Assembly: GCA_034521595.1 (NCBI GenBank)
Contig: JAXHMG010000002.1
Span: 96,001-160,000, forward strand
DNA from: Gemmatimonadota bacterium
Lineage (GTDB): Bacteria; Gemmatimonadota; Gemmatimonadetes; Longimicrobiales; Gaopeijiaceae
Direction: 5' to 3'
Length of the DNA: 64,000 bases
Below are positions 47,741-57,007 of the stretch, piece after piece (within the stretch, counting starts at the first letter, position 1; each line of letters starts with the position of its first letter). The notes below the pieces were generated by a model. It had not been told where the DNA came from, ran no database searches, and saw nothing but the letters and a program-made list of their open reading frames with translations. The position numbers and the translations under genes are program-made.

Positions 47741-48202
47741 CTACGCGCTGGCCCCTGCAGCGGCCGAGCCGTCCGACTCGACCTGCTCGCGGATCTGGCG
47801 CTTCAGCCGGTTCAAAATCGCGCTCATTCCCCGTAGCCGCAGGGGAGACACCACCTCACCCAGCCCCATTTCGGAGTAGAAGTCCGACGGGACCTCGAGC
47901 ACCTCCTGCCACCCGGCTCCTTCCAAACCTTCCCTGAGGATGCCCGCGAAGCCACGCACGGTCGGACTCTCCGCGGGCGCATCGAAGAAGAGGTGAACCG
48001 CTCCGTCGTCGTCGACCCGCGTGGCGAGGAAAAAGGGCGTCTGGCATTCGTGCACCTGTTCGAGCGACGAACGGTCATCGGCGAACTCGGCCGGAAGCTC
48101 CGGCACCTTGTTCGCGAACTGCAGGAGTGCCTGGACCCTCAGGTCCTTGGGCGCGCTTCCGAACCGATCCACGATCTTGGACAATGCGGGTGGGATGCTC
48201 AT
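47741..48202 (-). CDS. sufE: SufE family sulfur-acceptor protein
   Basis: VHECQTP, ESPTVRGFA, SPLRLRG. Confidence 0.9.
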   Translation of the reverse strand: MSIPPALSKIVDRFGSAPKDLRVQALLQFANKVPELPAEFADDRSSLEQVHECQTPFFLATRVDDDGAVHLFFDAPAESPTVRGFAGILREGLEGAGWQEVLEVPSDFYSEMGLGEVVSPLRLRGMSAILNRLKRQIREQVESDGSAAAGASA

Positions 48203-48403
48203 GTGTCCGGGCTACCGCACGAACGGCTCCGGGTTCCGTCGCGGGCACCGTAGCGGACCGAGCTCCGGAAACGTCGTCCGGGTGAACTCGCGACTCGGAT
48301 CGGGGTTACGTTCATGCTCGGGCACGGACCGGACCGGGTGCCCCGCACCCACGCGTGCCGCACGAAAGAGGAACGACAATGCGACTGCCCACCTGGAGGA
48401 CCC

Positions 48404-49279
48404 ATGCCAGCTCCCAACGACTCCGATCCCCGGTTCGAGCGCTACGCCCATCCGGATAAGCTCGTCTCCACGGACTGGCTCGCCGAGCACCTCGACGACT
48501 CCGACGTAGCCATCGTGGAGTCCGACGAGGACGTGCTCCTCTACGACACCGGCCACATCCCGGGCGCGATCAAGATCGACTGGCACATGGATCTGAACGA
48601 CCCGGTGACCCGGGATTACCTGGACGGGAAGAAGTTCGCCGAGCTCATGTCGTCGAAGGGCATCGACCGCGACACGACCGTCGTCTTCTACGGCGACAAC
48701 TTCAACTGGTGGGCCGCGTACGCGCTTTGGGTGTTCACCCTCTTCGGCCATCCGGACGTACGGTTGCTCGACGGTGGCCGCAAGAAGTGGATCGACGAAG
48801 ACCGGCCGCTCACGACGGACGTGCCCGAGCGCCCCCGCACGGAATACCCGGTCGTCGAACGGAACGACACGGAGATCCGGGCGTTCCGCGACGAAGTGCT
48901 CGAGCACATGAGCGCGGGCGGCAAGCTGGTCGACGTCCGGTCACCTCAGGAGTACAGCGGCGAGCTGCTGCACATGCCGGACTACCCGCAGGAGGGCTCG
49001 TTGCGAGGCGGCCACATCCCGGGGGCCGCGAACGTCCCGTGGAAGCGGGCCGCCAACGACGACGGCACGTTCAAGGACGTCGACGAGTTGAAGAAGATCT
49101 ACGAGCAGGAGCAGGGCCTCTCCCCCGATGCGGACGTCGTCGCCTACTGCCGGATCGGCGAGCGCTCGAGCCACACTTGGTTCGTGCTGCAGCACCTGCT
49201 CGGGTACCCGAAGGTCCGGAACTACGACGGTTCCTGGACGGAATGGGGGAACATGGTCCGCGCGCCGATCGAGCGCTGA
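48404..49279 (+). CDS. sseA: Two-domain rhodanese sulfurtransferase (SseA/CysA-like)
   Basis: GHIPGA twice, YCRIGERS active-site loop, YDGSWTEWG. Confidence 0.93.
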
Positions 49280-53381: not shown

Positions 53382-53967
53382 ATGGCATCGCTCTTCCGTC
53401 GTTCCACACGTCCGGCCTTGGTCGCGGTCTCGGGCCTCCTGATGCTCGGACCGGTGACCGCCCCCCTCACGGCCCAAGCGCACGACGCCCCCCGCCCCAT
53501 CGCCGGCACCAACACCGTGTGGCTCGAGGAGATGACTTGGATGGAGGTTCGCGACGCGCTCGCCGAGGGCAGCACGACGATCATCGTGGGAACGGGCGGG
53601 ATCGAGCAGAACGGTCCGTACGTGGCGAGCGGAAAGCACAACTTCGTCCTCACCGCCACGACCGAGGCCATCGCGCGGGAGCTCGGGAACGCCCTGGTCG
53701 CGCCGATCGTGAAGTTCGTGCCCGAAGGAGACGTTCGAGGCGCTGCTCACGGATATCGCCTCCAGCTTCGCCGCACACGGTTTCACCGACATCGTCCTCA
53801 TCGGCGACAGCGGCGGCAATCGCCGGCGGATGGACGCGGGCCTCTTCAGCATCAACGGCGTGGACCTGGCGCCCCTCTCGCGCACCATCGCCAACGGCCG
53901 GAGGCTGGTGCGGTACCGGGCCGAGCTAACCGCACGGGCCATCCGGGAGGCGATCGCGGGAGGGTGA
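53382..53967 (+). pseudogene. Creatininase-family amidohydrolase pseudogene (frameshift plus internal deletions)
   Basis: WLEEMTW, GGIEQNGP..GKHN, VPEG in one frame; ETFEALLTDIA..GFTDIVLIGDSGGN..SINGV in the +1 frame from 53728. Confidence 0.8.
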
Positions 53968-53985: not shown

Positions 53986-54014
53986 TTGATCGTGCGCCGG
54001 AACCCACATATGCT
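53986..54014 (+). promoter_or_regulatory. Sigma70-type promoter of the attenuated operon
   Basis: TTGATC-17 nt-TATGCT. Confidence 0.6.
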
Positions 54015-54036
54015 TAGTCGCTACGCACAAGCTTCA

Positions 54037-54162
54037 ATGATCCCCACCGCCACAGCCATGCGCCCCGAACTCCGTCCCCGAACTCCGACCGCGACCATGA
54101 CCTGTCGCTGTTGTTGTCCGGCTCTCCCGCCGGGAGAGGCCGAGGGGCGCCCGTACATGTGA
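54037..54162 (+). CDS. Cys-rich leader peptide (alternative in-frame starts at 54058 and 54097)
   Basis: MIPTATAMRPELRPRTPTATMTCRCCCPALPPGEAEGRPYM*; four TGT codons at 54103-54117. Confidence 0.7.
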   Translation: MIPTATAMRPELRPRTPTATMTCRCCCPALPPGEAEGRPYM

Positions 54163-54234
54163 CGGACGCGTGAACGACCACCGGGCTCAGCCCGGATCCC
54201 CGGCCCCTCTCCCCGCGAGAGGGGCCGTTTTTTT
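54103..54234 (+). promoter_or_regulatory. Ribosome-dependent transcription attenuator (cysteine-sensing)
   Basis: Mutually exclusive 1:2 (54122-54138), 2:3 (54132-54147 with 54198-54213) and 3:4 (54201-54227) pairings. Confidence 0.75.
54201..54234 (+). terminator. Intrinsic terminator of the attenuator
   Basis: CGGCCCCTCTC-CCCGC-GAGAGGGGCCG-TTTTTTT, ending 26 nt before the next start codon. Confidence 0.9.
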
Positions 54235-54260
54235 GTCCCGTTCCACACCGACCGAGACCC

Positions 54261-55277
54261 ATGACTCGTTCCGATATCCCCGGTGCCGCCAGCGGCGCCA
54301 TCGCCATCTATCACGAGCACCCGGACTGGTTCCGGCCGCTGTTCGACGAGCTCGACGCCCGCGGCGTGCCCTACGTCCGACTCGATGCGGCCGACCACGT
54401 GTTCGACCCGGCGGCCGAGGATCCCGACTACGCACTCGTCTTCAACCGGATGAGCCCCTCGGCGTTCCTGCGCGGCCGGGCGTCGGCGGTCTTCTACACG
54501 TCGCAGTACCTCGCCGACCTCGAGCGGCGCGGCATCCGGGTCATCAACGGGTGGAAGGCCTGGCAGACCGAGATCTCCAAAGCCGCCCAATTGTCGCTCC
54601 TGGCCGAGCTCGGCCTCCCCGCGCCCCGAGCACGCGTCATTCACCGGGCGGAGCAAGCTCCGGCCGCGGCCGAAGGCCTTCGCTTTCCCGTGGTCGTGAA
54701 GCCGAACATCGGTGGAAGCGGCGCGGGCGTGCGGCGTTTCGACAGGCCGGAGACTCTCGCCACGGCGACGAACGAACTCGATCTCGGCATCGACTCCACC
54801 GCCCTCGTGCAGGAGTTCGTGCCGGCAGAATCGGGACGGATCGTGCGCGTGGAGGTGCTCGACGGGAAGTTCCTCTACGCGATCCGGGTCTACACCGACG
54901 GGTCGGACTTCAACCTCTGCCCGGCCGACGCCTGCCAGAGCGTGGACGGCGCCGAGCTGGAGCGCGCCGCCTGCGCGGTGGACGCCCCCAAGAACGGCAT
55001 GCGGGTGGAAGGCTACGAGCCTCCCTCCGATGTCGTGGAGGACGTGGAGCGGATCATGGCCGCGGCCGGCATCGAGATCGGGGGCGTCGAGTACATGATC
55101 GACGAGCGTGACGGCCGACGGTACTACTACGACGTGAACGCGCTCTCCAACTTCGTGGCCGACGCGCCCAACGTGGTGGGGCTCGACGCCTTCGCGCGGC
55201 TGGCCGACTGGCTCCAGCGGGAGGCCGGCCTGACCCCGGCCCACGCGGAAGCCGCGATCCAAGGAGGTGCGGCATGA
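54261..55277 (+). CDS. ATP-grasp ligase (RimK/glutathione synthetase-like)
   Basis: FPVVVKPNIGGSGAGV, LVQEFV, YYDVN. Confidence 0.85.
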   Translation: MTRSDIPGAASGAIAIYHEHPDWFRPLFDELDARGVPYVRLDAADHVFDPAAEDPDYALVFNRMSPSAFLRGRASAVFYTSQYLADLERRGIRVINGWKAWQTEISKAAQLSLLAELGLPAPRARVIHRAEQAPAAAEGLRFPVVVKPNIGGSGAGVRRFDRPETLATATNELDLGIDSTALVQEFVPAESGRIVRVEVLDGKFLYAIRVYTDGSDFNLCPADACQSVDGAELERAACAVDAPKNGMRVEGYEPPSDVVEDVERIMAAAGIEIGGVEYMIDERDGRRYYYDVNALSNFVADAPNVVGLDAFARLADWLQREAGLTPAHAEAAIQGGAA

Positions 55278-56326
55278 GGTTCGGTTACTGGCTCCCCGTC
55301 TTCGGCGGCTGGCTTCGCAACGTCGAGGACGAAGGGATGGAAGCTTCGTGGGAATACGTCAGCCGCCTGGCCCGCCGCAGCGAGGAGATCGGCTTCGATC
55401 TGTCGCTCGTCGCCGAGCTCAACCTGAACGACATCAAGGGCATGGACGCGCCTTCGCTCGACGCTTGGAGCACCGCCGCCGCCCTCGCCGCCGTCACCGA
55501 GAAGCTCGAGCTCATGGTGGCGGTACGCCCGACCTTTCACGCTCCGGCGCTCCTGGCGAAACAAGCGGCGAACATCGACCGGATCAGCGGAGGCCGCCTC
55601 TCGCTCAACGTCGTGTCGTCGTGGTGGGCGACCGAGGCGAAGAAGTATGGCGTGCAGTTCGACGAGCACGACGACCGCTACGCCCGCACGGCGGAGTGGC
55701 TCGAGATCGTCGACGGGATGTGGAAGCAGCCGGAGTTCTCGTTCAAGGGACGGTACTACGAGGTCGAGGACGCGATCCTCGAGCCGAAGCCCGTGCGCCG
55801 GCCGCGGCCTACCGTGTACGCAGGCGGCGAGTCAGCCGCCGCCAAGGAGCTGATCTCGACCAAGTGCGACGCGTGGCTGACCCACGGTGACCCACCCGAC
55901 GTCATCCGCCCCAAGGTCGACGACATGCGGGAACGACGGGCGCGGACCGGTCTCGAACCCATGTCGTTCGGTGCCGCCGGCTACGCCGTGGTCCGGCCCA
56001 CGGAGCGCGAGGTCCGGCAGGAGCTCGAGCGCATCACGAACGTGCGCGAGAACGCACGCGGCTATGCGAATTACCAGGACTGGATCAACAACACCGAGCT
56101 CGAGCGGCAGGTGAGCATCGAGGACTACTCGGTCTCCAACCGGGGGCTCCGCAGCGGGCTCACGGGAACGCCCGAGCAAGTGGCCGAGCGGATCTTGGAG
56201 TTCGAGCGGGCGGGCCTGGACCTACTGCTGCTCCAGTTCTCCCCACAGCTCGAGGAGATGGAGCGGTTCGCCGAGGAGGTCATTCCGCTCGTGCGGGAGG
56301 AGTCGGAGGCGAGTCGGGTGGCGTAG
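55274..56326 (+). CDS. LLM-class flavin monooxygenase, SsuD/SfnG-like (organosulfur utilisation)
   Basis: MRFGYWLPVFGGW, LMVAVRP, IDRISGGRLSLNVV, YAGGES, GTPEQVAERI; ATGA overlap with the ATP-grasp gene. Confidence 0.85.
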   Translation: MRFGYWLPVFGGWLRNVEDEGMEASWEYVSRLARRSEEIGFDLSLVAELNLNDIKGMDAPSLDAWSTAAALAAVTEKLELMVAVRPTFHAPALLAKQAANIDRISGGRLSLNVVSSWWATEAKKYGVQFDEHDDRYARTAEWLEIVDGMWKQPEFSFKGRYYEVEDAILEPKPVRRPRPTVYAGGESAAAKELISTKCDAWLTHGDPPDVIRPKVDDMRERRARTGLEPMSFGAAGYAVVRPTEREVRQELERITNVRENARGYANYQDWINNTELERQVSIEDYSVSNRGLRSGLTGTPEQVAERILEFERAGLDLLLLQFSPQLEEMERFAEEVIPLVREESEASRVA

Positions 56327-56329
56327 CTG

Positions 56330-57007
56330 CTAGGATCCGTCCGAAGTCGAATCGGTCACGCTGGACCGGATCTGGTCCGCCCCCGTCACCATGCGATGGA
56401 AGTTCCCCTCCCAGGACTGCCAGGCGAGCACCAACGCGGCGACCACCAGCATCACGGAGGCTCCCTTCATCATGCGCTGCTGCCATGCGCGTGTGAGCCG
56501 CCGGTGCCCGTACGCCGCGAGCCCGGCGACGACCGACCGGACAGCGAGCAACTGGAGGATGAACGCACCCGCGAACGCACCGCCGAGCTCCCAGGAGACG
56601 CGCCAGAAACCCACGAACAGGGGCGCGCCCACCAACATCCAGAAGACCCAAGGAGTCGGTGAGACGAGCGCCAGCAATGCGGCTTCCAGGCTCCGGCGTG
56701 ACGCCTCGTCGGGGACGTGCGCCACCGGATCTTCCTGGGCCCGCTTCCAGGTGCCGCGGGCGAGATAGAGGATCAGGACGCCTCCGACGATCCCCATCCA
56801 CCGGAGCAAGCCGTCCGGAAGCTGCGCGACCACCAGAGCCGCGGTCGTCAGCACCACCAGCTCCGAAAGAAGCGGCACGACCGCCACCCGAAATCCCGCC
56901 CGGAAGCCGGATTTCAGGGAGGTCGCCGCCACGAGCGCGGAGAAGGGGCCGGGAATCGCGCCGGCGACGAGTCCCAGCACGAATCCCAGGAAAAGAGGTT
57001 CCGACAC
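56330..57007 (-). CDS. LysE/RhtB family exporter
   Basis: IPGP motif, GFRAG, LVSP..WVFW, about 6 TM segments; GTG start overlaps the MITE flank. Confidence 0.85.
   Translation of the reverse strand: MSEPLFLGFVLGLVAGAIPGPFSALVAATSLKSGFRAGFRVAVVPLLSELVVLTTAALVVAQLPDGLLRWMGIVGGVLILYLARGTWKRAQEDPVAHVPDEASRRSLEAALLALVSPTPWVFWMLVGAPLFVGFWRVSWELGGAFAGAFILQLLAVRSVVAGLAAYGHRRLTRAWQQRMMKGASVMLVVAALVLAWQSWEGNFHRMVTGADQIRSSVTDSTSDGS

Follow-up and report, generated by a model that had tools for sequence, protein, structure and literature searches.

What governs an operon whose leader carries a run of cysteine codons followed by a hairpin and a run of T? The question is raised by a locus in the genome of a Gemmatimonadota bacterium, within a stretch of 64,000 nucleotides (nt; the window) at positions 96,001 to 160,000 of contig JAXHMG010000002.1. 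There, a short open reading frame (ORF) and a terminator precede the genes for a RimK-like ATP-grasp protein and a luciferase-like monooxygenase (LLM). A reading made from the sequence alone (the sequence-only reading) had proposed attenuation at Cys codons in the manner of the trp operon. Conservation of the leader, its tracking of the operon's first gene, the bias of its reading frame and folding with masked ribosome positions all support that proposal, and the element is, judged from sequence, very probably a cysteine-sensing, ribosome-coupled transcription attenuator. Its parts are listed in Table 1.

Table 1. Features of the leader and operon, in window positions
Feature	Positions	Strand	Basis
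-35-like hexamer TTGATC	53986..53991	+	sequence; TTGATC at the same place in L003, L004 and L110
-10-like hexamer TATGCT	54009..54014	+	sequence; layout recurs in related units
Leader ORF, 34 amino acids, most likely start ATG 54058	54058..54162	+	ORF list; starts of relatives
Putative sensing codons M-T-C-R-C-C-C	54097..54117	+	TGT at 54103, 54109, 54112 and 54115
Segment 1 (anti-antiterminator), pairs with segment 2	54119..54128	+	folds
Segment 2 (antiterminator strand), 14 base pairs with 54198-54213	54132..54146	+	masked folds
Segment 3, terminator 5' arm plus flanks, target of segment 2	54198..54213	+	folds
Intrinsic terminator: 11-base-pair stem 54201-54227, T7 54228-54234	54201..54234	+	terminator scan; folds
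RimK-like ATP-grasp protein, 338 amino acids	54261..55277	+	PF08443 32 bits; TIGR00768 67 bits
LLM, 350 amino acids, uncharacterised 3RAO/8VW6 subgroup	55274..56326	+	PF00296; PDB 3RAO, E 3e-132

The leader and its terminator recur before related operons. Loci with relatives of the ATP-grasp gene were collected (188) and 157 were scored, the remainder being 13 duplicates, loci lacking the 5' end of the gene or having less than 450 nt upstream, and two with N in the scored stretch. A unit was defined as a short ORF with at least three Cys in seven codons, then a hairpin with a U-rich tail. When upstream regions were compared, as the sequence-only reading had proposed, Cys codons were found to persist in orthologous leaders: the Cys ORF is present in 65 of the 157 loci, the hairpin with a U-rich tail in 79, and both in the right order in 58, so that the hairpin accompanies 58 of the 65 Cys leaders. 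The reverse strand of the same loci yields no unit at all (0/157), and the same rule applied to H, Y, F, N, K, Q, W, D or E in place of Cys yields between 0 and 3, with Met giving 13. Twenty of the 24 scored genomes of this order, the window included, carry the unit; the four misses are two leaders without a scored terminator and two terminators with a weaker Cys or Met/Cys leader. By phylum, the unit is found in 18 of 22 named genome loci of Gemmatimonadota, 7 of 19 of Acidobacteriota and 2 of 13 others. The closest named locus lies in a Gemmatimonadota genome, with an ATP-grasp protein 85% identical to that of the window. Upstream of distant homologues in Deinococcus, Bacillus, Pediococcus and Spirosoma no convincing leader with terminator was seen. 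In Rufibacter (L074), a short ORF ending R-C-C-C-stop lies some 300 nt ahead of the ATP-grasp gene; no terminator was scored with it, and it resembles the actinobacterial type.

The unit also tracks the start of the operon. In 24 loci a flavin mononucleotide (FMN) reductase gene (PF03358) stands ahead of the ATP-grasp gene, and in 20 of the 21 of these with enough DNA the unit has moved to a position before the FMN reductase that heads the operon. Flanking and upstream genes vary among relatives, and leader and terminator stay with the first operon gene.

Is the leader likely to be transcribed and read? The promoter-like site named by the sequence-only reading is present at 53986-54014, with a 17-nt spacer; it matches 8 of 12 consensus positions and is missing from the promoter scan list because the scan threshold was 9. 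Transcription would begin near 54021. Comparison was extended to 76 distinct units, 75 from the ATP-grasp operon and one from a transporter described below. In 51 of them, the 150 nt leading up to the Cys run contain a TTG hexamer, a gap of 16-18 nt and TAnnnT; the reverse strand gives 7 of 76. Between this -10 box and the Cys run, an ATG is found in frame in 46 of the 51 units and out of frame in 4. Thirty of the 51 have an in-frame ATG or GTG only 4-10 nt past the -10 box, where no out-of-frame ATG occurs, a spacing which suggests leaderless translation in those units, the window not being among them. The window leader has candidate in-frame starts at ATG 54037, 54058 and 54097. The distance from the -10 box to the first in-frame ATG is 42 nt in the relatives L003 and L004 and 43 nt for ATG 54058, the start which agrees best with close relatives and is most likely, although the start codon is uncertain. 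TTG 53986 and ATG 54010 were ruled out as starts, both lying inside the promoter boxes.

Could the hairpin be no more than an ordinary, unregulated stop for the gene upstream, with an incidental Cys ORF beside it? A creatininase-like frame on the same strand stops at 53967, no other clear terminator separates it from the leader, and GC-rich DNA yields many short ORFs, two of the four Cys-ORF-plus-hairpin matches in this genome looking spurious. However, upstream genes are exchanged between relatives while leader and terminator remain in place, and neither the empty reverse strand nor the excess of in-frame over out-of-frame ATG is what such a stop predicts. This account is highly improbable.

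The codons themselves point to the amino acid as the object of selection. The leader ORF encodes C-R-C-C-C as claimed, ending at TGA 54160-62, and its four Cys codons are all TGT, in a genome where TGT makes up 24.4% of Cys codons (1849 confidently called genes), giving a nominal chance of 0.004; the genome has one tRNA-Cys, with anticodon GCA. The claim that all Cys codons are TGT is right for the window and fails across the 76 units, which hold 156 TGT and 152 TGC; only 11 are all-TGT and 60 contain both codons. An all-TGT run was therefore rejected as a required feature, although TGT use across the units is still about twice this genome's rate. Such a mixture fits selection on the amino acid rather than on a DNA motif. 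A Met codon lies between -3 and +7 codons from the first Cys in 60 of the 76 units. Four further leaders (L013, L016, L117 and L145) have the same terminator design with only one or two Cys, some of them Met-adjacent (M-C-M); their sensitivity may be tuned, or their sensing shifted towards methionine.

A Cys-rich peptide might alternatively be a functional product that binds metals or takes part in redox chemistry, or a nascent-chain stall signal for a metal or oxidant, and the motifs CxCCC and CMCMC could conceivably bind metals. Only the Cys/Met run is kept, however, while length, spacing and flanking residues vary freely, and the genes downstream are a cystine transporter and genes that are also preceded by a SAM-II riboswitch. 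A role for the peptide itself is thus very unlikely.

How would translation of the leader be coupled to the terminator? In folding energy, the region 54020-54240 outranks 199 of its 200 shuffles (z -2.95), and each pairing put forward by the sequence-only reading was recovered. CTCTCCC at 54122-28 pairs with GGGAGAG at 54132-38 within a 1:2 hairpin of -17.0 kcal/mol, segment 2 can pair instead with the terminator 5' arm in a 2:3 duplex of -27.6 kcal/mol, and the terminator stem has -23.4 kcal/mol. The terminator ends 26 nt before the ATP-grasp start codon, which lies outside it. Masked folding, also proposed there, gives the expected alternation: with Cys codon 2, 3 or 4 masked, transcripts ending at 54213-54221 form the 14-base-pair antiterminator, with Cys codon 1 masked they do not, and with the stop codon masked they mostly take the 1:2 form. 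The notion that a ribosome at the stop codon masks segment 2 needs amendment; only the 3' part of segment 2 is covered, and the folds attribute termination chiefly to the return of 1:2 behind the ribosome.

The same computation was carried across the 76 units. The probability of arm pairing did not separate real from shuffled leaders and was for that reason replaced by an energy measure, the cost of freeing the terminator arm with all RNA 5' of the stalled ribosome masked; for controls, the middle of each unit was shuffled five times. The mean cost is 16.3 kcal/mol with the ribosome stalled, 6.6 with the ribosome at the stop and 6.9 untranslated, against 8.6, 6.6 and 6.8 kcal/mol in the shuffled controls, and the stall cost exceeds the stop cost by more than 3 kcal/mol in 70 of 76 real units against 25 of 76 shuffled ones. 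In the window the three costs are 16.0, 1.5 and 7.2 kcal/mol. Pairing of a leader is stronger with the terminator arm of its own unit than with arms unlike it (centred values -3.5 and +0.7); the own arm ranks within the top 10% for 44 of the 76 units, and the preference holds across distinct terminator sequence families. In 17 aligned leaders the segment 1 region has 83.5% of its cells paired, compared with 51-65% when it is slid. The predicted antiterminator begins a median of 15 nt past the last Cys codon, which is roughly the position of a ribosome's 3' edge.

Several results weigh against the attenuator, or at least against its simplest form. The complete terminator of the window wins at equilibrium under every mask (P about 0.99), and the stall cost attains the terminator energy in only 4 of the 76 units; for both reasons a switch would have to be kinetic. 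Before it was set aside, the arm-pairing probability gave 0.75-0.79 for real and 0.64 for shuffled leaders, and a strict switch rule based on it was satisfied by none of the 76. Column-wise covariation, in a 17-sequence MAFFT alignment with register slips in the G/C runs, is not above shuffles for 2:3 and is marginal for 1:2. When only a footprint from 18 nt 5' to 12 nt 3' of the A-site codon is masked, the window margin drops to 6-7 kcal/mol for Cys 2-4, the 5' leader then being able to pair with segment 2 as well; the values are 2.7 kcal/mol for Cys 1, 2-2.7 for most codons on the way to the stop, and 7-9 kcal/mol for those upstream of 54085. No clear Shine-Dalgarno sequence precedes the candidate starts of the window leader, which is not of the leaderless kind either. 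As to distribution, the unit is missing from the position immediately ahead of the ATP-grasp gene in 99 of the 157 loci, of which some have it ahead of the FMN reductase instead, and all 23 scored Planctomycetota loci are without it; the counts also overstate independence, since the loci are kin and were selected by their similarity.

Do these difficulties favour a Cys leader that acts by another route, such as pausing, Rho or occlusion of the start codon as in mycobacterial Ms5788A, with 2:3 pairing a by-product of G/C-rich repeats? The win of the terminator at equilibrium and the lack of covariation above shuffles for 2:3 are compatible with it. So is the sequence, since segments 1 and 3 and segments 2 and 4 are near-repeats, such that 2:3 follows from 1:2 and 3:4, and a few relatives, L023 among them, have a poor U tract. 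Yet the start codon lies clear of the terminator, a U-tailed hairpin goes with most Cys leaders, and both the stall-specific cost and the own-arm preference exceed their controls. Another route is unlikely, if somewhat less so than an ordinary stop or a working peptide.

The cysteine-sensing attenuator would operate as follows. After transcription begins near 54021, a ribosome would translate the short ORF. When Cys-tRNA is scarce, it would pause at Cys codon 2, 3 or 4 and cover segment 1, leaving segment 2 free to capture the nascent 5' arm of the terminator, and RNA polymerase would continue through to the two enzyme genes. Ample cysteine, or a leader left untranslated, would allow 1:2 to form, and the 3:4 terminator with its U tract would then halt transcription ahead of the first gene. 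Met-tRNA is probably sensed as well in many relatives.

Is the ATP-grasp operon the only gene set so equipped? The genome-wide scan that returned the four Cys-ORF-plus-terminator matches, two of them convincing, covered 211 terminators. The second unit (G000:C1, minus strand, about 84130-84360, terminator 84171-84192; L189, L200) has a promoter-like site, four Cys codons, an in-frame ATG 6 nt past the -10-like box, a terminator and an antiterminator, and precedes a gene for a TcyP-like cystine transporter, 58.8% identical to an Escherichia coli protein annotated TcyP. A Cys leader stands before all ten matches to this transporter in 61 genomes, this genome included. In this genome, 450 nt of upstream sequence show no Cys leader for cysS, for either cysK-family gene or for the genes matching PF01507 and PF03358, operon heads farther upstream not having been checked singly. 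One strong hairpin of the same genome follows a short ORF rich in Thr (G000:C3, minus strand, near 282366-282408), possibly by chance.

Some relatives carry more than one control element. In L207, L208 and L209, two Cys-leader-plus-terminator units stand in series within about 560 nt before the TcyP-like gene, and a pattern search finds one promoter-like site before the first unit and none between the two. The first terminators of L207 and L209, at -13.7 kcal/mol, fall just under the cut-off; the second of L208 has a weak U tail. Of 20 loci scanned, four of them preselected by motif, 4 carry a SAM-II riboswitch (RF00521) above the Rfam cut-off ahead of the ATP-grasp gene. The hits lie at 1085-1156 in L005, 1178-1254 in L020, 541-616 in L030 and 4840-4914 in L106, each followed by a GC-rich hairpin; the riboswitch is upstream of the Cys unit in the first three, and L106 has no Cys unit.

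What the operon does is a separate question. The sequence-only reading took it for an organosulfur-scavenging operon with an SsuD/SfnG-type LLM, and this part is doubtful. Although SfnG and SsuD are the best named families for the LLM, the protein falls short of both cut-offs (260 against 383 bits for SfnG, TIGR04021; 188 against 518 bits for SsuD, TIGR03565), and neither name was adopted. It is far nearer PDB 3RAO (445 bits) than SfnG (186 bits; 8T0U, E 1e-53). The residues that bind dimethyl sulfone in SfnG are W11, Q53, R55, Y60, W121, F267, W285, Y296 and N297 (PMC11588060). In an alignment read by eye, the LLM keeps W11, W121 and N297 and lacks Q53, R55, Y60, W285 and Y296. It shares with SfnG the class C flavin monooxygenase family and, in some relatives, an FMN reductase partner (PMC11588060). 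For the first gene, the RimK family alpha-L-glutamate ligase was rejected as a name, TIGR00768 scoring below its cut-off of 143 bits, and the PF08443 domain passes.

The metabolic setting points the same way. No match to the sulfite reductase family PF01077 was found in this genome, which is 93% complete, nor any cysE above the cut-off. Release of sulfite is of little use to a cell unable to reduce it, and the missing sulfite reductase match makes sulfonate scavenging doubtful. Among 61 genomes of the order, PF01077 is matched in 1 of 27 with the ATP-grasp gene and in 11 of 34 without it (Fisher p 0.008, the genomes being kin rather than independent and some matches resembling nitrite or dissimilatory reductases). 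Should the LLM nevertheless act on sulfonates or sulfones and so supply sulfite or methanesulfinate for assimilation, the FMN reductase that heads the operon in 24 loci would be a natural companion; with the family scores, the lost substrate residues and the PF01077 contrast all opposed, this function is possible but doubtful. A better case, at about even chances, can be made that the operon recovers cysteine or methionine from an S-modified or oxidised substrate of amino-acid type, and not sulfite from sulfonates. In Bacillus subtilis, the flavin monooxygenases CmoO and CmoJ recover cysteine from S-alkyl-cysteine once its amino group is acylated, according to the available part of PMC10863075. 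The likeness, by analogy only, is a flavin monooxygenase with a possible amino-group acylation step; the B. subtilis pathway differs in using acetylation, without an ATP-grasp ligase, and an LLM of another subgroup. The two genes are also found as a pair in Bacillus sp. N5-665, and in Spirosoma they lie close to genes for amino-acid permeases; a related LLM gene in Deinococcus deserti follows genes for a D-cysteine desulfhydrase, a racemase and a ligase.

Against this background, how new is the element? It has three features of a classical attenuator: a conserved, Cys-enriched leader, an intrinsic terminator, and an antiterminator that excludes the terminator and is favoured when the Cys codons are covered. 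A downstream gene that supplies the sensed amino acid is seen for the TcyP-like unit, and for the ATP-grasp operon the corresponding sign, an indirect one, is the SAM-II riboswitch in four loci. As far as the available parts of bioRxiv 10.1101/834739 and PMC4007540 describe them, E. coli trpL and Salmonella hisL share with it a codon run for a single amino acid, pairings (1:2, 2:3 and 3:4) that exclude one another and an intrinsic terminator before the first gene. Unlike them, the present leader would sense Cys, often with Met, and stands before uptake genes and an uncharacterised enzyme pair rather than biosynthetic genes, and many of its relatives look leaderless.

Nearer precedents exist for cysteine. 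Poly-Cys short ORFs that sense Cys-tRNA before sulfur genes are described for actinobacteria in the part of PMC1262725 that could be consulted and for mycobacteria in bioRxiv 10.1101/834739; for mycobacterial Ms5788A the accessible text of bioRxiv 10.1101/834739 gives translational control through Shine-Dalgarno occlusion, with no conserved terminator. The window leader does not belong to that translational type, having a conserved terminator (folds to 54240, with the start codon outside). Rhodobacterales have uORFC-8-2 before cysS, a predicted Cys attenuator with an intrinsic terminator; in the available portion of PMC8632094 it has two Cys codons, mostly UGC, and is confined to cysS in Alphaproteobacteria. 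The units described here have 3-7 Cys codons and lie before other genes in other phyla. The window leader was not assigned to uORFC-8-2, as the units precede ATP-grasp/LLM and TcyP-like genes, none lies in the 450 nt before the cysS of this genome, and an Rfam scan of the window leader gave no family match. A leaderless Cys leader peptide of 10 amino acids with two Cys is predicted to attenuate transcription of cysS in D. deserti (PMC4007540, whose accessible part offers no analysis of an antiterminator), and its leaderless start resembles that of the 30 units noted above.

The suggestion that a terminator version is undescribed in this lineage therefore holds only in part. No paper on a Cys attenuator of this lineage was found in a search that left the supplements of PMC8632094, PMC4007540 and PMC2965389 and subscription journals outside its scope, but the type is already predicted for cysS in Rhodobacterales, going by the accessible portion of PMC8632094. 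For Acidobacteria, almost no predicted attenuators have functions in what is available of PMC2965389. New here are the tandem attenuators and the SAM-II-plus-attenuator leaders of relatives; the principle is known, and had been predicted for cysteine elsewhere.

In the literature as partly available, tests of Cys-sensing leader ORFs come from mycobacteria only and concern translational control, terminator types being cysS predictions. The element described here would be a complete and compact transcriptional version with dozens of natural variants. As a label, the leader ties a widespread, uncharacterised two-gene module, with 3RAO as a solved but functionally unassigned structure, to cysteine or methionine supply, narrowing the search for its substrate, and it does so in bacteria mostly without a sulfite reductase match. 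It is tempting, though speculative, to go further: Gemmatimonadota and some Acidobacteriota might use modular, stacked Cys/Met attenuators of the terminator type as their main sensor of sulfur amino acids, marking the ATP-grasp and 3RAO-type pair as an undescribed, sulfite-free route for cysteine or methionine salvage. Stacking would then mean two attenuators before a cystine transporter, or a SAM-II riboswitch and an attenuator in series, both natural two-step gates, and salvage might proceed through acylation of the amino group before oxidative C-S cleavage.

Around the operon, the creatininase-family gene (PF02633) at 53384-53967 (+) has a frame shift near 53740 and looks shortened, pointing to a pseudogene or to a fault in the assembly; this genome's PF01507 gene is likewise divided between two frames. 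About 5 kb before the operon, and outside it, a SufE-family gene (47741-48202, -) and a two-domain rhodanese gene (48314-49279, +) are arranged divergently. On the other side, a gene for a LysE-type translocator (56330-57007, -) converges with the LLM gene.

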